NCBI GenBank assembly: GCA_000146045.2
Contig: BK006939.2
Location: 96,001 to 160,000, forward strand
DNA from: TPA_inf: Saccharomyces
Taxonomy: Eukaryota
Direction of reading: 5' to 3'
DNA: 64,000 nt
The notes below the pieces were generated by a model. The model ran no database searches. It saw only the letters and a list, made by a program, of their open reading frames with translations, and was not told the DNA's origin. The number at the start of each line of letters is the position of its first letter. The stretch's first letter is position 1. Positions 2,668 through 42,737 of the stretch are shown piece after piece. The position numbers and the translations under genes were made by a program.

Positions 2668-3129
2668 ATGAAAATAACAATAACAAGCCTTCTATTTTTT
2701 CTTGTCATGATCGTCGAGCTCGCAAGTGCGGGCACACTACTTCATAATGGTGCAAATTTGCCCTCATTACGTGATAACACCACTCTAACTGATGCTCGTA
2801 ATGTGTTAAAGTACTTACAAGTGCTTGGTTTTCCAAGCAACAAAATAGCGGCTACAGATACTGTTGGAACTTTTATCATATTTAGCAATCGTACGGAAGC
2901 TAACACTACCGCTATGACGAAGACAGTGTCATACTGTTATCGTAACTACGGGCATAGTTTCTACTTCACTCATTACAAATACGACTATTTTCCTAGCGGG
3001 ATTAGTTATATGGCAAAACTTGGCGATGCCACCGTCAACCATACGGACTTACCTCACTTTAGGAACAACAAACGGCTAACAACGCAAGAACTCAATGCCT
3101 TCCAACATCCAATTGTCGAGTTTCAGTAA
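2668..3129 (+). CDS. Hypothetical small secreted/membrane protein (153 aa); dubious ORF
   Basis: ATG at 2668. N-terminal hydrophobic signal-like segment MKITITSLLFFLVMIVELASA and several N-x-T/S sites. No recognisable domain. Same position and length as YEL028W. Confidence 0.35.
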   Translation: MKITITSLLFFLVMIVELASAGTLLHNGANLPSLRDNTTLTDARNVLKYLQVLGFPSNKIAATDTVGTFIIFSNRTEANTTAMTKTVSYCYRNYGHSFYFTHYKYDYFPSGISYMAKLGDATVNHTDLPHFRNNKRLTTQELNAFQHPIVEFQ

Positions 3130-4132: not shown

Positions 4133-4204
4133 AGCGCCGTGGCGCAGTGGAAGCGCGCAGGGCTCATAACCCTGATGTCCTCGGATCGAAACCGAGCGGC
4201 GCTA
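4133..4204 (+). tRNA. Initiator tRNA-Met (CAU)
   Basis: AGCGCCGTGGCGCAGTGGAAGCGCGCAGGGCTCATAACCCTGATGTCCTCGGATCGAAACCGAGCGGCGCTA. It has the A-box TGGCGCAGTGG and B-box GGATCGAAACC, the anticodon CAT, and the initiator-specific A1:U72 acceptor base pair and GGG/CCC anticodon stem. It is followed by the T-run ATTTTTCATTTCTTTTT. Confidence 0.93.
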
Positions 4205-20166: not shown

Positions 20167-20970
20167 ATGTCGAAAGCTACATATAAGGAACGTGCTGCTA
20201 CTCATCCTAGTCCTGTTGCTGCCAAGCTATTTAATATCATGCACGAAAAGCAAACAAACTTGTGTGCTTCATTGGATGTTCGTACCACCAAGGAATTACT
20301 GGAGTTAGTTGAAGCATTAGGTCCCAAAATTTGTTTACTAAAAACACATGTGGATATCTTGACTGATTTTTCCATGGAGGGCACAGTTAAGCCGCTAAAG
20401 GCATTATCCGCCAAGTACAATTTTTTACTCTTCGAAGACAGAAAATTTGCTGACATTGGTAATACAGTCAAATTGCAGTACTCTGCGGGTGTATACAGAA
20501 TAGCAGAATGGGCAGACATTACGAATGCACACGGTGTGGTGGGCCCAGGTATTGTTAGCGGTTTGAAGCAGGCGGCGGAAGAAGTAACAAAGGAACCTAG
20601 AGGCCTTTTGATGTTAGCAGAATTGTCATGCAAGGGCTCCCTAGCTACTGGAGAATATACTAAGGGTACTGTTGACATTGCGAAGAGCGACAAAGATTTT
20701 GTTATCGGCTTTATTGCTCAAAGAGACATGGGTGGAAGAGATGAAGGTTACGATTGGTTGATTATGACACCCGGTGTGGGTTTAGATGACAAGGGAGACG
20801 CATTGGGTCAACAGTATAGAACCGTGGATGATGTGGTCTCTACAGGATCTGACATTATTATTGTTGGAAGAGGACTATTTGCAAAGGGAAGGGATGCTAA
20901 GGTAGAGGGTGAACGTTACAGAAAAGCAGGCTGGGAAGCATATTTGAGAAGATGCGGCCAGCAAAACTAA
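20167..20970 (+). CDS. URA3: Orotidine-5'-phosphate decarboxylase (267 aa)
   Basis: ATG at 20167. The full protein matches URA3 ([38 protein letters not shown]...). Confidence 0.98.
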
Positions 20971-21649: not shown

Positions 21650-22118
21650 TTGGAAGTTGGATATGGGCTGGAACAGCAGCAGTAATCGGTATCGGGTTCG
21701 CCACTAATGACGTCCTACGATTGCACTCAACAGACCTTGACGCTCACGCCGTAGCGGGCGACAAGTCAAACGGAACAACCGTTGCCGTTCCCATCGGAGT
21801 CCGACCTAGGCCGAACTCCGTGAATTTCTGATAACAACGGTCGGTAAAGACTGGTTCCCCAGTATATTTCTTCTCTCAGGAGCAGGGGCCAATGCCAAAA
21901 GCGACATTAACCCGGAGGACAAGGCTCCACTGTGTTCCACCGAATTTCCCACCTGATAATATCTGATAACCCGCCCATAGGTGGGGATCCTTCTGTAAAC
22001 AGGTTTCTTAATCGTAGGAATTACCACTGTTCCACTGCCAATCGCAGCTCCCAGAGTTTCGTTCCCAGCCGCGAGCACCACAGCGTACCATGTGCGCCAC
22101 GAGGCCTCAAACGTAAAA
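21650..22118 (-). ncRNA. RPR1: RNase P RNA, precursor span including the ~84-nt leader
   Basis: The minus-strand RNA carries the CR-I/P4-type sequence GGGAAAUUCGGUGGAACACAGUGGAGCC (plus strand 21915..21942). tRNA-like A-box (TGGCGCACATGG, 22089..22100) and B-box (GGGAACGAAACTC, 22055..22067) elements lie in the transcribed leader. I place the mature 5' end at about 22035 (GUGGAACAGUGGUAAUUCC) and the 3' end near 21667. The oligo-T terminator on the minus strand is at about 21631..21643. Ends are approximate. Confidence 0.78.
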
Positions 22119-24497: not shown

Positions 24498-25301
24498 TCA
24501 TAAAACATCGATGGCTTGACTACTTCTTTTATCCTGTTCCTGAGATTCTTTCATCTTGGCGATCTTACACCTTAGTTCCATAATAGGGTCTCTTACAAAA
24601 TCCCTCATTGAAACGACTTGAGAACACGCTGCTTGCGGGCAATCTCTTGTCGTGTATCCTTGTAAATAGTTTTGAATGCCGTCTCTATCGAAGACGTGAT
24701 TACATTTTCTTGATATCAATGGTGCTTCGTAAGGTTTGCAGGTGATAGGACAAGTCAATTCAATTTTACCACCTTCTATTTGTAGATCGTCTTCGTCTGC
24801 GGGGTTTTGCAGATCCGGTATTACACAAGTTGGATCATTCCATATGTACGGCAACACTTTTAGTATCTTGAGTGTATCTGTGTTATTAACCATGGTTGCA
24901 GGCTCTGGTGTGGGCATATTTAGATATAATTCAGATAATTTGGGAGCGGTGAGTTCTCCGGTACGATATTTATCCCAGGTAGAAAGGTCGATTTGCGGAC
25001 AGGCATCTGAGGATTGTTTGAAATTTTTTTTTAAATCTTTAATATGTTCGTCAAATGAGTTGGATTCCGATTCGTATGTCGAGAGGAGTTTGTAGGTGCT
25101 AGTAATATCTGCGACCTGCTCTTCAATGCCGATGGTGGAAGGAGATGTAGAATCCACTAATTGATTTATGGTCTCATCAATTTGTTTGTAGCATTGTTGA
25201 TATATATTTGATAAGTCTCGGGCATGTAAATTATGGAAGTACTTACCTGATTTTGGGTGTAGAGGAACTGACTTGGGTATAGGATTATCGTTCAAGGCCA
25301 T
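24498..25301 (-). CDS. MMS21: SUMO E3 ligase, SP-RING subunit of the Smc5/6 complex (267 aa)
   Basis: ATG confirmed at 25301 (MALNDNPIPKS). SP-RING motif (CPITCKPYEAPLISRKCNHVFDRDGIQNYL). Confidence 0.88.
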   Translation of the reverse strand: MALNDNPIPKSVPLHPKSGKYFHNLHARDLSNIYQQCYKQIDETINQLVDSTSPSTIGIEEQVADITSTYKLLSTYESESNSFDEHIKDLKKNFKQSSDACPQIDLSTWDKYRTGELTAPKLSELYLNMPTPEPATMVNNTDTLKILKVLPYIWNDPTCVIPDLQNPADEDDLQIEGGKIELTCPITCKPYEAPLISRKCNHVFDRDGIQNYLQGYTTRDCPQAACSQVVSMRDFVRDPIMELRCKIAKMKESQEQDKRSSQAIDVL

Positions 25302-25470
25302 TTTTAAAGTTATTCTTTTTTTATATAGTCTTGCCTTGGTTTCTTTAACTGACACGATTATTTTAGCAAGTTTTTTTCTACACAGGAAAAGAGGAAGAAA
25401 ATAACCAGAGAAGCACTGGTAAAAAGATACTTCTGCGTGCCGGAGTAACCAGAATCAAAGGAACGCATAG

Positions 25471-26310
25471 ATGGATAAAGAGGTAAGTGAATTGGTAGTG
25501 TTGCAGCTAATACACACTTTAATTTCCAACAAGAATGAAGAACTGGTTAGGAACGGGGGAGGAATCAACATGATTGGGAATAATCTTCGAATATCGCTAG
25601 TCAAGTTGACTAACGAAATACAAAACAATTTGCTAATCAACGAGCTGACAAATTTAAGAAGGCAAAGCAACGTGGCAAATGGAAACAGGAAACTGGGCAT
25701 CAACGATATCCTGACCATAGTTAAGAATTTATTCCCAGAGTACAGAACAACACTAAACGATGGACAACTTAGTCTACACGGTTTGGAAATGCATGATATC
25801 GAGAAGCTCCTTGACGAAAAGTACGATCGATTCAAGAAAACGCAGGTCGAACAAATAAGGATGATGGAGGATGAGATATTGAAGAACGGTATAAAGACCG
25901 GTGCATCGCAACTGCAACCACATGCAAATGCTGGCAAAAGTGGATCTGCTGGTACCAGTGCTACTATAACTACGACTACGCCACACATGGCGCATTCAAT
26001 GGACCCAAAAAGAGAAAAACTATTGAAATTATACAGAGATACCGTTCTGAATAAATTGGAAAGTAAAACTGGGAATTTTCAGAAGCTATTCAAGAGTCCC
26101 GATGGTAGCATTATCAAGAATGAGATAAATTACGAAGACATAAAGAACGAAACGCCCGGCAGCGTTCATGAACTGCAGCTGATTCTTCAAAAGAGCATAA
26201 CGGACGGTGTAATGCGAAAGGTCATTGGTACGGACGACTGGAAATTGGCTAGACAAGTGCAGTTTGAATTGGATGATACGGTGCAGTTCATGAGAAGAGC
26301 ACTAGAGTAA
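25471..26310 (+). CDS. EAF5: NuA4 histone acetyltransferase subunit (279 aa)
   Basis: ATG at 25471. Length and position match YEL018W. Assignment rests on gene order. Confidence 0.75.
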   Translation: MDKEVSELVVLQLIHTLISNKNEELVRNGGGINMIGNNLRISLVKLTNEIQNNLLINELTNLRRQSNVANGNRKLGINDILTIVKNLFPEYRTTLNDGQLSLHGLEMHDIEKLLDEKYDRFKKTQVEQIRMMEDEILKNGIKTGASQLQPHANAGKSGSAGTSATITTTTPHMAHSMDPKREKLLKLYRDTVLNKLESKTGNFQKLFKSPDGSIIKNEINYEDIKNETPGSVHELQLILQKSITDGVMRKVIGTDDWKLARQVQFELDDTVQFMRRALE

Positions 26311-26797: not shown

Positions 26798-26923
26798 TTA
26801 GAATCTTTGTAAACCTCTTTGTCTAGCTTGCCATTTTCTGTAGATAATGGTAGAAATGATGGCGATACAAGCCAAACCGACTAGAATAAAAACTAAGATA
26901 ACACCACCTGGTAACGTGCTCAT
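26798..26923 (-). CDS. PMP2: Plasma-membrane H+-ATPase-associated proteolipid (41 codons)
   Basis: Below the ORF-track size cutoff. The minus-strand translation is MSTLPGGVILVFILVGLACIAI.STIIYRKWQARQRGLQRF, a single transmembrane helix followed by a basic tail. Confidence 0.8.
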   Translation of the reverse strand: MSTLPGGVILVFILVGLACIAIISTIIYRKWQARQRGLQRF

Positions 26924-27656
26924 CAACATCTTTGTATAATTGTTATTGTACTATTTATTGTTTTGTATGTATACGATGGAGAAAAAGAGAAAGGAAGAAG
27001 GAAGGACGAAAGAGAAAAAACTGGAAGGGAAGAAGAATTGATTTTATATTAACCAAGAGGAAGGAAAGGAAATTGAGTTGTGATTACGGAATTTTAGTTT
27101 TTTTCACTGTTTATTTAAACCAAAAGGTGTGGAAGAGAAAGAGAGAAAAAAGTTCTGTAATTCGTTAAGGAAATTAAGTATCCGCGCCGGAAAAATAGCG
27201 AGAGGTTTTTTTTGATGCAAAAGCTAGGGAGGGCTGCGGACGGATTTCGAAAACAGCTCAACAGCGTGGTGACGAGTTGCGTCAGGGTGTTGGCCAGTGC
27301 TACCGCGGGCGGCGCTGCACAGGGAGTAAGCAGAGCGGGCTAGAGCGCGGTTTTGGAGAGGGCCCGGGCTGCTGTGGTCGTAGGATTGCGGTAATTTAGT
27401 GGCTCGCCCTCGTTTGTCGTGCTTTTTCCGAGTTCCGAAACTCTTTCCCGAGCTGTTAATGTGCTAAAAGTGGTAAATCGTATATGATGATATACGTATA
27501 TGATGATAATTTCCTGCGCGCTACTTGCGTGCATTCGTCACTCATAACAAAAAGAACTACACAATACGTAAACAACGTGCGAAAATATCTATATACAAGG
27601 GGAGAAAACAAAAGTGAAAGTGCATTACAGCCCATCACAGATCATTATAATACAAT

Positions 27657-28670
27657 ATGCCGACCAAGTCAACTTTTAGTCGCTGGAAGAAGGCGGACCT
27701 AATTGACCTGGCCAACAAGCTGGAAATTGACGGCTTCCCCAATTATGCCAAGAAGAGTGATATGATCGATTACCTCGAATCGCACTTGAATCATCTTGAG
27801 AAACCTGTGGATTTTAAAGACGACTACCCGGAACTAAGGTCCTTTTATGAGTCGATGACAGTGGACCAGTCAAAGGATGAACGGAACGAATACGGATCCG
27901 GATCTGGAAACGGGTCTGGGTCTGGATCCTGTGACACCGCCACAAATGATTCCGATCTGGAGAAAGCGTACATCAAGGAGGATGATGATGAGAAACCGCA
28001 ATCAGGCGATGAAACAAGCGCGACAAAGCCGCTTTCCAGCAGGAATGCAAATTCAAACGCCAAAACGAACTTCAATTTGTTGGATTTTAGCACAGATAAC
28101 GACTCGTCCACCTCTGCGTTTACTAAGTTCAAGTTTAACTTTCAGGAATACCTCTCCGATATTAGATACCAAACGCAGAAATTGAATGAAAATGTTCAGG
28201 ACTATCTTTCCACTATTTCCGCCGTCGATACGATTTTTTCCTTGTTGGAATTCTCTTTTCTGGTGAGAAACATATTAGCCGCCGGGCAGCCAACTTCTTC
28301 TTCTTCGCTCGCATCGTCGCTGGAAGCCGCCGTTGCCGCCCATAATAAATATCAATACACGCTCGATTTCTGTTTACCAATACTCACGTGGCTGCTCTTC
28401 TTTAGGGGTATTCCAACGTTAGTGTCATACTACATCAACTTCATCCGCTACGACCTGAACATCGAGTTGGACCCGATGACTTTCAATCTCACGAAATTCT
28501 TGATTTCTTTGGCAATCTTCAAAACTTGTAATAATAAAAACATAGATTTCCATTCTTTTCGATGTGTTAACCAACTATGGACACAACTCTGTACAGTGAA
28601 CCGTTCCCTTGGTATGGTACCTCTAGTATTCTCCATGGTTAGTTGTCTCCTCACTCTATACGTATTATAG
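27657..28670 (+). CDS. GTT3: Protein of unknown function with a C-terminal transmembrane region (337 aa)
   Basis: ATG at 27657. Low-complexity GSGSGNGSGSGS stretch and hydrophobic C-terminal segments. Position matches YEL017W. Confidence 0.75.
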   Translation: MPTKSTFSRWKKADLIDLANKLEIDGFPNYAKKSDMIDYLESHLNHLEKPVDFKDDYPELRSFYESMTVDQSKDERNEYGSGSGNGSGSGSCDTATNDSDLEKAYIKEDDDEKPQSGDETSATKPLSSRNANSNAKTNFNLLDFSTDNDSSTSAFTKFKFNFQEYLSDIRYQTQKLNENVQDYLSTISAVDTIFSLLEFSFLVRNILAAGQPTSSSSLASSLEAAVAAHNKYQYTLDFCLPILTWLLFFRGIPTLVSYYINFIRYDLNIELDPMTFNLTKFLISLAIFKTCNNKNIDFHSFRCVNQLWTQLCTVNRSLGMVPLVFSMVSCLLTLYVL

Positions 28671-28736: not shown

Positions 28737-30218
28737 TTATTGTAATAAACTCTTCTCCTTCTTTGTCTTTTCTTCTCCCAAAAGCGCACTTGCCTTGATC
28801 AGCATATTGTATACTTCGATGTTTTCAAATGGAGGTACGACTTCATTGTTGAACATCGGACCCATTCCAATGAATATAGATGCCATATCACTACAGTTGT
28901 TAAAGTTGTATCCATGTGTGCCCATAATGCCGATAGGCACATCACCCATTTCTTTTACAATGGCGTAGTATTCATCTGCGAGAATCCAGATATCGCCGAC
29001 CCTATCGTCATATCTGTGCTTTCTGTTATCGTATTGGAAATATTTCCAGCTCGGGTCGAAATCTTCTTTCAGGATCACGTGAAACTTCCTCGATATTTCA
29101 TCTCCATATGCTTTCTCTAACTGAGCTTCAATCAAGTCACAAATCCATTGCTTGTCTCGAGGGTTTTTCAAACATACCATCATCATGGGGCCCTCGTTAT
29201 AAAGATGCGAAATAAATGCGCTCATTGCGTCGGCCGGGAACACCCTTTCCCACACAACAACATGCTCACCGTCATTCGCGTTGACATTGCTCATGCCATG
29301 GTCACTAACAATCATAACATTGCTAATTTTCAACAAGTTTCTTTTTTGCAGGCCTTCAATCAAATCGAGAAAGAATCCATCGACTTCACCGATCAGCTTT
29401 TGTAGCCGCTTATCTCGTAAATCGTATCCAAAACTGTGTCCGTACGAATCAACATTGGGTATATAACTTATGACCAATTCTGGCCTATCTTTAAGCTGAG
29501 GCATATCTATGTATCGGAAAATTTGAGCTAATTTATCTTGAAGTTTTTCCCATTGATTGAATTTCCCAAAATAAAATGGCATTCTTTCCCTAGGTACATC
29601 CCCGTGGTCCTCATACACAACCTCACTTCCAGGCCACATATGCGTGGCCACTTTATATTCGCCTTGCGATTCAGTTTGCAGTAGTTGCCAAATAGGGTCA
29701 GCCGTGTTGCTCCAAATTCTTGCGTCGAGGTTATTTGGTCTAAATTCGCTACTCGTGAAATTATCCCAGAATATATTGGAAACAATACCGTGCTCAATGG
29801 GATATTTTCCCGTTACCATGCTCCAGTGGTTGGGAAATGTCTGAGTGGGAAAACTTGGGATCATATACGGTGCAGTCGTGATATTCATATCGTACGGGGA
29901 CCGCAAATTGTGCAAGTTGTAAAGAAATGGCGTGTATTTTGCATCTATCAATCTCGGATGGAACCCATCGATAGATATCAATATCGTTAACGTCTTGAAA
30001 TCATGTGTGCCGTTGAAGTAAGTATTTGATCTATTCGCAATTGTCCGGGGCCCATTATCAATAGGTTTTGGGCACTTCGAATATAAAAGCAACTCAATGA
30101 GTATTATACCGCAAAGCAAAAGTTTCAATAAAAAATGTCGTGATATTGCGAAAGGTTTTATGTTCGTATCATCTTCATTATTTTTTTCAAGGTCAACAGG
30201 TTGCTCGAAAAGAAGCAT
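28737..30218 (-). CDS. NPP2: Ecto-nucleotide pyrophosphatase/phosphodiesterase, type II membrane protein (493 aa)
   Basis: ATG confirmed at 30218. ENPP/alkaline-phosphatase-superfamily core (ISIDGFHP ... VSDHGM). N-terminal signal anchor. Confidence 0.88.
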   Translation of the reverse strand: MLLFEQPVDLEKNNEDDTNIKPFAISRHFLLKLLLCGIILIELLLYSKCPKPIDNGPRTIANRSNTYFNGTHDFKTLTILISIDGFHPRLIDAKYTPFLYNLHNLRSPYDMNITTAPYMIPSFPTQTFPNHWSMVTGKYPIEHGIVSNIFWDNFTSSEFRPNNLDARIWSNTADPIWQLLQTESQGEYKVATHMWPGSEVVYEDHGDVPRERMPFYFGKFNQWEKLQDKLAQIFRYIDMPQLKDRPELVISYIPNVDSYGHSFGYDLRDKRLQKLIGEVDGFFLDLIEGLQKRNLLKISNVMIVSDHGMSNVNANDGEHVVVWERVFPADAMSAFISHLYNEGPMMMVCLKNPRDKQWICDLIEAQLEKAYGDEISRKFHVILKEDFDPSWKYFQYDNRKHRYDDRVGDIWILADEYYAIVKEMGDVPIGIMGTHGYNFNNCSDMASIFIGMGPMFNNEVVPPFENIEVYNMLIKASALLGEEKTKKEKSLLQ

Positions 30219-34561: not shown

Positions 34562-35082
34562 TTTTCTTCAAAAGCGGGACTAGGCATTATAATTTTTATC
34601 AAAATTTTCTTCTCAGAAGTTTTATTTTCTTTCTCTCCATTTCTTCCATCTTTTTAATCTTTGTTTCCTTTTTTTACATCATATTACTTCTACCTACTCT
34701 ACTCTATTCTAATTTCAATTGATTTTTTTTATTTTATTTTTTTTTTTGTTAATAAAAGAAGAAAAAACTTAAAAACGAATAAGAGGCTGTCTTTGTTCCG
34801 TAGTATATGCCTATTTCCTTCTAGAAGTTTGAAGTGTCGTAAATTTTACCTACGGATAATGTTCGTTACATTGTTGAATGGCAACTGTAGTGAGGTAATG
34901 TTCAAAAAGTGAGAAAGCGGGAGAGAAGGGCTACATACAAAAACCAATTCTAGATAACATCTATATCTTCGTTTTTAGAATATATTGTAATAAAACACAA
35001 TTGATAATACAGTTCTCTCTTCGTCCTCTGATGGTGGGAGATCTATTAAAAATACAAGTTAGCTGAGCGGGGGAAAAAAATA

Positions 35083-35153
35083 GGTCTTACCCGGATTCGA
35101 ACCGGGGTTGTTCGGATCAAAACCGAAAGTGATAACCACTACACTATAAAACC
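35083..35153 (-). tRNA. tRNA-Gln (UUG)
   Basis: Reverse complement: GGTTTTATAGTGTAGTGGTTATCACTTTCGGTTTTGATCCGAACAACCCCGGTTCGAATCCGGGTAAGACC. The anticodon loop TTTTGAT gives anticodon TTG, and the B-box is GGTTCGAATCC. A minus-strand T-run terminator appears as A7 at 35074..35080. Confidence 0.92.
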
Positions 35154-39424: not shown

Positions 39425-39497
39425 AGCCCTGTAGGGGGCTCGAACCCCTAACCTTATGATTAAGAGTCATACGCGCTACCGATTGCGCCAACAAGGC
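39425..39497 (-). tRNA. tRNA-Lys (CUU)
   Basis: Reverse complement: GCCTTGTTGGCGCAATCGGTAGCGCGTATGACTCTTAATCATAAGGTTAGGGGTTCGAGCCCCCTACAGGGCT. Anticodon CTT, B-box GGTTCGAGCCC. Confidence 0.92.
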
Positions 39498-42665: not shown

Positions 42666-42737
42666 GCTCGCGTGGCGTAATGGCAACGCGTCTGACTTCT
42701 AATCAGAAGATTATGGGTTCGACCCCCATCGTGAGTG
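42666..42737 (+). tRNA. tRNA-Arg (UCU)
   Basis: GCTCGCGTGGCGTAATGGCAACGCGTCTGACTTCTAATCAGAAGATTATGGGTTCGACCCCCATCGTGAGTG. Anticodon TCT, followed by the T8 terminator. Confidence 0.92.

Follow-up and report, generated by a model that had tools for sequence, protein, structure and literature searches.

The intergenic DNA between PMP2 and GTT3 on chromosome V of Saccharomyces cerevisiae carries a GC-rich island (27181-27440) between the start codons of the two divergent genes, and our data show that this island is real and conserved and has the look of ordinary promoter DNA, not that of a hidden RNA or protein gene. On balance, we favour the interpretation that it forms the central part of a shared divergent RNA polymerase II (Pol II) promoter, in which a GC-rich spacer of nucleosome size is bordered by regulatory edges. 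All coordinates refer to the window, i.e. the whole 64-kb stretch of DNA that was analysed; according to a fit to a published coordinate list, adding exactly 96,000 gives the chromosome V coordinate. The gene pair and the parts of the intergenic region on which this interpretation builds are as follows (invariant columns refer to an alignment of six Saccharomyces species):

26798-26929, minus strand: PMP2 coding sequence, left gene of the divergent pair (open reading frame, ORF, of 43 aa)
27657-28670, plus strand: GTT3 coding sequence, right gene of the divergent pair (ORF of 337 aa)
27078-27224: gap of 147 bp or more that is free of nucleosomes, assigned to position '-1' of PMP2, AT- and homopolymer-rich (map of Jiang & Pugh, 2009)
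27226-27372: proposed nucleosome-favouring core, 65.3% G+C, with only two A4/T4 words
27181-27263: left block, 44 of 108 alignment columns invariant
27264-27383: poorly conserved core, 12 of 122 alignment columns invariant
27384-27460: right block, 52 of 86 alignment columns invariant

The 43-aa ORF matches Pmp2p with 100% identity and belongs to the Pfam family PMP1_2, and the 337-aa ORF has homologues named Gtt3p and matches the Pfam family GTT3_N. With PMP2 beginning at 26929 on the minus strand and GTT3 starting at 27657 on the plus strand, the island lies between the 5' ends of both genes, as expected for a divergent promoter; it is upstream of both, 252-511 bp away from the ATG of PMP2 and 217-476 bp away from that of GTT3.

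An earlier note on this DNA had described a block of about 60% G+C over about 260 bp that contrasts sharply with its flanks. The sequence quoted there is found where the note had placed it and the block is real, although the G+C content of 27181-27440 is slightly lower (57.7%, with a mean of 37% for the window). The contrast is as sharp as described: the flanks have 31-40% G+C, and on all scales between 100 and 300 bp no GC peak in the 64 kb exceeds that of the island. The maximal-scoring GC segment spans 27227-27412 (63.4% G+C), and the best 147-bp window coincides with the core listed above (z = 4.8; all 147-bp windows: mean 37%, standard deviation 5.9%). Only one other 260-bp peak in the window exceeds 52% G+C, namely RPR1 (21673-22030, minus strand), the gene of the nuclear RNase P RNA (Rfam RF00009, 84.7 bits, full-length). 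Besides, the island is asymmetric, with 95 G against 55 C on the plus strand, and has a CpG observed/expected ratio of 1.24 compared to 0.85 for the whole window.

An argument for promoter DNA comes from the comparison of six species: S. cerevisiae, an S. paradoxus-like Logan assembly (91% GTT3 identity), S. kudriavzevii, S. arboricola, S. uvarum and S. eubayanus; S. mikatae was left out, as its orthologous locus was not recovered. The island is present at the same place in the five other species, with 57-65% G+C in all six lineages, 100-bp peaks of 65-79% in the five other loci and a steady G-over-C strand skew of 0.16-0.23. When S. cerevisiae is compared with S. uvarum and S. eubayanus, identity amounts to 0.70-0.79 in the edge blocks (0.71-0.76 for S. 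uvarum) and 0.67 in the core, whereas four-fold degenerate sites of the neighbouring genes retain only 0.49-0.50 (0.50 for S. uvarum), which means that short blocks are conserved well above the neutral rate. The earlier note had held that a lack of conservation beyond neutral expectation among the sensu stricto species would speak against an element at this place; what we find instead are strongly conserved edges. The core contains gaps of 46 bp in S. kudriavzevii and 37 bp in S. arboricola, and a 12-bp gap is also present in the alignment. It keeps its composition but not its sequence in the six species. To judge from the alignment, this pattern is the footprint of a promoter and not that of a gene.

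For the chromatin state of the region, we rely on the map of Jiang & Pugh (2009), which inserts a 'hypothetical nucleosome' wherever measured nucleosomes are at least 147 bp apart. One of these entries (P5:123151, chr05 123078-123224, labelled '-1:YEL017C-A') marks the nucleosome-free gap on the PMP2 side, and the next one on chr05 follows at 124890. Since the map gives no other gap of at least 147 bp before chr05 124890, measured nucleosomes should cover the GC core. The gap stops one base short of the start-side edge of the 147-bp GC maximum (27224 compared to 27226) and holds 17 AAAA/TTTT words, the highest number in the intergenic region, with 17 also given for the adjoining stretch 27076-27222. 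The composition of the core, which over some 147 bp is rich in G+C and poor in poly(dA:dT) words, is the one that favours nucleosomes: G+C is the dominant predictor of intrinsic nucleosome occupancy and alone accounts for about half of the in vitro variation (PMC2808325).

The conserved elements at the edges of the island and beyond are distributed over the promoter as follows:

27110-27119, minus strand: TATA-like element of PMP2, TTTAAATAAA, within a block invariant in the six species; putative role
27181-27195, plus strand: TCCGCGCCGGAAAAA at the left edge of the island, with a CGCG word, identical in the six Saccharomyces species
27250-27262, plus strand: AAAACAGCTCAAC, conserved block within the left block, at most one mismatch across the six species
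27386-27397, minus strand: AAATTACCGCAA, ancient PMP upstream element given in PMP sense, exact or with one mismatch in several PMP promoters
27405-27456: conserved right-edge block CGCCCTCGTTTG..CGTG..TTTTTCCGAG..CCG.A..TCCCGAGC(G/T)GT, from the six-species alignment
27479-27507, plus strand: two tandem CGTATATGATGAT copies with the pattern CGT-N5-RTGAY (duplicated CGTATATGATGATA: 27479-27508)
27566-27604, plus strand: GTT3-proximal conserved elements ACGTAAACAACGTG (with a forkhead-like GTAAACAA), then TATATACA and AGGGG, from the six-species alignment

At the left edge, TCCGCGCCGGAAAAA has one exact copy in the window and three matches at up to three mismatches (0.92 expected), and it is followed by a T8 tract (27206-27213). 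Words of the Rsc3/30 type that contain CGCG are nucleosome-depleted in vivo in S. cerevisiae (PMC2897762), and we infer that the CGCG word of TCCGCGCCGGAAAAA may be a site for RSC. The right block contains TTGCGGTAATTT, CGCCCTCGTTTG, TTTTTCCGAG and CCCGAGCGGT. Beyond it, CGTATATGATGATA is duplicated in tandem in two of the species, S. cerevisiae and the S. paradoxus-like strain, and single in the remaining four; one copy of the CGT-N5-RTGAY pattern is kept in all six. This pattern is the consensus of Abf1, for which 27479-27507 is a putative site. Weak Rfam matches to C/D-box snoRNAs at 27479-27508 (E = 5-7) merely mirror ATGATGA words. A scan with consensus patterns found no Reb1, Rap1, Cbf1, PDRE, MCB or B-box site in the island, while a URS1-like GGCGGC, an Adr1-like word and a UPRE-like word occur in S. 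cerevisiae but are not conserved. There is also no trace of a TFIIIC-bound ETC or B-box insulator, as GGTTCGANNCC at up to one mismatch was not found in the intergenic region of the six species. Apart from the CGTATATGATGATA duplication, which lies outside the island, the repeat search returned nothing but purine tracts of low complexity, and blastn against plasmids gave no match and with it no hint of foreign or vector DNA.

Taken together, these elements suggest the following architecture. On the left, TCCGCGCCGGAAAAA with its CGCG word and the T8 tract would border the wide nucleosome-free region of PMP2. On the right, the edge would be formed by an old PMP upstream element, AAATTACCGCA, together with CAAACGAGGGCG and GGAAAAA, followed toward GTT3 by the Abf1-type site and then by the GTT3 core promoter. 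For the core in between (27226-27412, roughly 150-190 bp), an intrinsic preference for nucleosomes is predicted that is unsurpassed in the window. In all likelihood, this core is occupied by a single positioned nucleosome, which would keep two nucleosome-depleted regions apart and may set the spacing of the PMP upstream element to the PMP2 core promoter. The occupancy of the core, the proteins at the motifs and any insulation between PMP2 and GTT3 are inferred. Among the options offered in the earlier note, a nucleosome-positioning or insulator element fits best, in that the top 147-bp G+C of the window, the adjoining gap and the conserved composition point to it, if indirectly; its suggestions of a structured RNA or a coding remnant find no support.

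A link of the island to the PMP genes in particular is provided by PMP1, the paralogue of PMP2, next to which the copy of GTT3 has been lost. PMP1 is also preceded by a GC-rich block (54-68% G+C), situated at about -500 to -740 in both S. cerevisiae and S. eubayanus, and this block is C-skewed on the PMP sense strand just as the PMP2 island is:

L011 (S. cerevisiae) 2851-3050; L013 (S. eubayanus) about 1770-1975: PMP1 upstream GC-rich block

The two blocks cannot be aligned apart from AAATTACCGCA(A), which has the same orientation relative to PMP in both, and GTATCCGCGC, which has the opposite one. Within the PMP1 block we noticed AAATTACCGCA, a CACGTG and a Rap1-like CACCCATACCAT. All six species have the longer form AAATTACCGCAA upstream of PMP2; it also precedes PMP1 (S. 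cerevisiae, S. eubayanus) and PMP (Torulaspora globosa and the pre-duplication-type locus L010). The AAATTACCGCA 11-mer itself lies upstream of PMP at -196 in T. globosa (exact) and at -354 in L010 (one mismatch), and in both it is preceded by a GGAAAAA..CCGCAAACGA arrangement related to the right-edge block. Because an exact 11-mer is rare by chance in about 1 kb (roughly 5 in 10,000), we regard AAATTACCGCA as an old upstream element of PMP genes. It fits none of the Reb1, Rap1, Cbf1, PDRE, MCB or B-box consensuses and, by eye, does not correspond to the Mcm1 consensus. The general regulatory factor of these promoters seems to have changed, as Reb1-type TTACCCG sites are found in the promoters of PMP1, T. 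globosa, L010 and Lachancea fermentati, with the Abf1-type site instead in the Saccharomyces PMP2–GTT3 promoter; turnover of such factors between lineages has been described (PMC2897762).

Two further features bear on other explanations of the island:

27117-27628: meiotic double-strand break (DSB) hotspot mapped by Spo11 oligos, 512 bp, covering the whole shared promoter including the island (entry '5 123117 123628', 'hotspots' sheet of Table 1 in PMC8276760, which holds the 3,600 hotspots of Pan et al., 2011)
27285-27368, plus strand: six GGG tracts with loops of 3-20 nt (own scan: motif 27285-27339, extended to 27368)

The main rival of the promoter-spacer interpretation is a legacy of GC-biased recombination. 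According to this explanation, which we consider rather unlikely, the G+C richness is a by-product of GC-biased heteroduplex repair at a strong and stable DSB hotspot, so that the block is functionless and only the motifs at its edges are functional. The island indeed lies inside the hotspot chr05 123117-123628, and the conversion of coordinates places the PMP1 block in another wide hotspot (chr03 163376-163945); for this conversion, we assumed S288C positions for L011, and the YCR026C nucleosome labels are consistent with the result. A conserved composition with a non-conserved sequence, as well as two paralogous blocks that are unalignable and yet both GC-rich, would also fit. However, the overlap is little informative, as most yeast promoters are hotspots, and an excess of A/T-to-G/C fixation was not found. 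When substitutions were polarised by parsimony on four terminal branches (S. cerevisiae, S. paradoxus-like, S. uvarum and S. eubayanus), changes from G/C to A/T outnumbered the reverse by 27 to 7, which rejects the 1:1 ratio expected at any maintained equilibrium (binomial p = 0.0008), with the reservation that the counts are small and that GC-rich, highly diverged outgroups may bias the polarisation in this very direction. For the island, these changes imply an equilibrium G+C of 0.27-0.32, no higher than the 0.30 at four-fold sites of the S. cerevisiae/S. paradoxus-like pair; within this pair, the island gives 0.32. In the same pair, both substitution rates of the island are just under half of the four-fold values (0.103 compared to 0.241 and 0.048 compared to 0.101). 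As the rates are about halved and the equilibrium is equal, there is general constraint on the island, with nothing in the recent branches that would point to GC-biased conversion or to selection acting on G+C as such. The G-over-C skew is not predicted by biased conversion either. Another explanation, which we judge improbable, is that the G-rich plus strand forms a G-quadruplex (G4) or favours an R-loop, acting as a regulatory or as a replication or recombination signal in the promoter. In its favour, the skew is kept in six species, the six GGG tracts at 27285-27368 are contained in a stretch already listed as a G4 DNA motif in Dataset S1 of Capra et al. (2010) ('scer_chr05 g4_dna_motif 123284 123368 W', i.e. 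27284-27368, with a loop limit of 25 nt), and yeast promoters and DSB sites are enriched in such motifs (Capra et al., 2010). The S. cerevisiae sequence is a motif under that definition, but the motif is not conserved throughout the sensu stricto species: with all loops limited to 12 nt, it is found in none of the six species, it is missing from S. arboricola, with its two GGG tracts, at loops of up to 25 nt as well, and the positions of the G-tracts are not conserved. The motif at chr05 123284-123368 is also not in Dataset S2 of Capra et al. (2010).

A G4 function shares its status as unlikely with the two gene-based explanations, both of which had been raised by the earlier note. For an unannotated, possibly structured non-coding RNA, which we hold to be very improbable, speaks that the one comparable GC peak of the 64 kb belongs to RPR1, a genuine gene of a structured RNA, and that invariant inverted pairs bracket the island, CGGAAAAA (27188-27195) with TTTTTCCG (27423-27430) and GAGGGC (27229-27234) with GCCCTC (27406-27411), the latter with one matching double change in S. 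arboricola (GAGGAC/GTCCTC). Inverted 7- to 8-mers at such spacing are, however, expected by chance in a single sequence, the bracket helices are 93.7% paired yet almost invariant, and the observed covariation score was reached by 74 of 500 shuffles; the pairs may simply be the same motifs in opposite orientation. The self-complementarity described in the earlier note does not exceed chance when the region is folded: the minimum free energy has z-scores of +0.24 (plus strand) and -0.71 (minus strand) relative to dinucleotide shuffles, 122 and 48 of 200 of which, respectively, fold at least as well, and the repeat search reported no GC-rich inverted repeat inside the island. Covariation, which the note had proposed to look for across the sensu stricto species, was not significant, as the RNAalifold covariation terms of the six-species alignment are penalties on both strands (+2.74 and +0.85 kcal/mol). 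Rfam gave only chance matches at E <= 10 over 26900-27700, none of them over the island, and at the gathering threshold only RPR1 and four tRNAs within the window. Large indels in the core (46 and 37 bp) and the missing polymerase III B-box also argue against an RNA gene, and although the map of Jiang & Pugh labels cryptic unstable transcripts (CUTs) and stable unannotated transcripts (SUTs) too, the position adjoining the island is labelled only YEL017C-A (PMP2). The least probable explanation is that the island is a decayed protein-coding gene, which we regard as close to refuted. Stop-free frames of 66-92 codons span the island in each species, but the longest frame varies in strand and phase among them, and the indels are not multiples of three; GC-rich DNA contains few stop codons by composition. 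At E <= 1, Pfam gave nothing but a 12.6-bit chance match. Furthermore, GTT3 and PMP are divergent neighbours with no gene in between in T. globosa (281 bp apart) and L. fermentati (793 bp apart), and because they are adjacent in these pre-duplication yeasts, no gene has been lost at PMP2–GTT3. A tblastn search with GTT3 proteins also found no relic in the GC block upstream of PMP1; one weak match (E = 0.009) lies farther upstream of that block in S. eubayanus.

Several observations weigh against the promoter-spacer interpretation that we prefer. The 27 to 7 excess of changes toward A/T and the equilibrium G+C of about 0.3 reveal no force that would hold the composition, as far as parsimony polarisation can be trusted; conversely, 57-65% G+C in all six lineages is hard to square with free decay. 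The 512-bp Spo11 hotspot could mean that meiotic chromatin is open over the entire region and thus also over the core. No comparable GC island accompanies the same arrangement of genes in the post-duplication locus L009, in T. globosa and in L010, which shows that the GC spacer is not required for a PMP–GTT3 promoter; the GC core appears to be a property of the Saccharomyces lineage. In addition, the predicted nucleosome over the core follows from the lack of a listed gap, and the putative assignments to RSC/Rsc3 and Abf1 build on consensus matches, in part taken from general papers.

This kind of feature is well known, and existing catalogues contain both its G-rich core and the hotspot. In the literature, we found no paper that names PMP2 together with GTT3, searches for YEL017C-A and for the GTT3 promoter returned nothing on the island region, and neither gene is listed in the supplements of Tsankov et al. 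The main benefit of the analysis is to clear a candidate, in that the sharpest GC peak in 64 kb is no missed RNA or protein gene; a smaller one is AAATTACCGCA, whose conservation upstream of PMP genes across the whole-genome duplication could be useful to work on promoter architecture. Having the same composition and skew but different sequence, the PMP1 and PMP2 blocks also form a compact test case for base composition as a selected promoter property. One may speculate, with little confidence, that each PMP paralogue has kept or acquired a nucleosome-sized, GC-rich, strand-skewed and unalignable block as a composition-encoded chromatin element, selected to hold one nucleosome between the PMP upstream element and the adjoining promoter DNA, that insulates a very strongly expressed small gene from the gene next to it and shapes an unusually wide meiotic break hotspot. 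If true, selection in this yeast promoter would clearly have acted on base composition and not on sequence.

Apart from the island, the following genes were located in its neighbourhood:

24498-25355, minus strand: MMS21 (ORF)
25471-26310, plus strand: EAF5 (ORF)
28737-30218, minus strand: NPP2 (ORF)

The four tRNA genes found at the Rfam gathering threshold are at 4133-4204 (plus), 35082-35153 (minus), 39425-39497 (minus) and 42666-42737 (plus). A further motif from Dataset S1 of Capra et al. (2010) lies at 20885-20935 (chrV 116885-116935, plus strand), about 740 bp from RPR1. Purine-rich GA/AG tracts lie between the start codon of PMP2 and the TATA-like element (26955-27160), where the sense strand of PMP2 is strongly pyrimidine-rich. 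The length of these tracts differs among species (same region in L002-L007), the longest ones, in S. arboricola and in S. eubayanus, reaching about 40 bp. In Naumovozyma castellii, EAF5 and GTT3 are 244 bp apart with no PMP between them (L008 3756-4000), and the PMP homologue (P0028) is on a different contig. The GTT3–PMP intergenic region of L. fermentati (L014 1707-2500) contains five Reb1-type sites (TTACCCG/CGGGTAA) within about 140 bp, and upstream of PMP it reaches a 100-bp G+C peak of 82% in a locus with 56% G+C overall.

With regard to known systems, the island resembles structured RNA genes such as RPR1 in the size of its GC peak, but it differs from them in having no covariance-model match, no excess of stability, no covariation and large indels in its core. 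Like the G4 motifs of Capra et al. (2010), the stretch 27284-27368 is listed and is situated both in a promoter and in a DSB hotspot; in contrast, its loops are long (12-20 nt) and the quadruplex is a prediction from the letters. The promoter is likewise listed among the Spo11 hotspots (chr05 123117-123628; Pan et al., 2011), a call that gives the location of breaks and not the cause of the GC richness, the substitution spectrum being without GC-biased fixation. Another parallel is the GC-rich, nucleosome-favouring DNA described by Tillo & Hughes (2009), since the 147 bp with 65% G+C and two A4/T4 words show the combination of high G+C and few A4/T4 words that is weighted most in their model (PMC2808325). 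Here, the prediction is made from composition, whereas promoter nucleosomes in vivo are also set by remodellers. Similar, too, are the divergent Pol II promoters in which two nucleosome-depleted regions surround a positioned nucleosome, an arrangement set by general regulatory factors and poly(dA:dT) (Jiang & Pugh, 2009; Tsankov et al., 2010). PMP2 and GTT3 also have divergent start codons, with an AT- and T-tract-rich gap on the PMP2 side, a conserved Abf1-type site on the GTT3 side and an invariant CGCG motif, and Reb1-type sites replace the Abf1-type ones in the paralogous and orthologous promoters. In contrast to such promoters, the intervening segment of PMP2–GTT3 is unusually GC-rich, its nucleosome and factors are predicted ones, and it is composition, not sequence, that is common to the six species and the PMP1 promoter.

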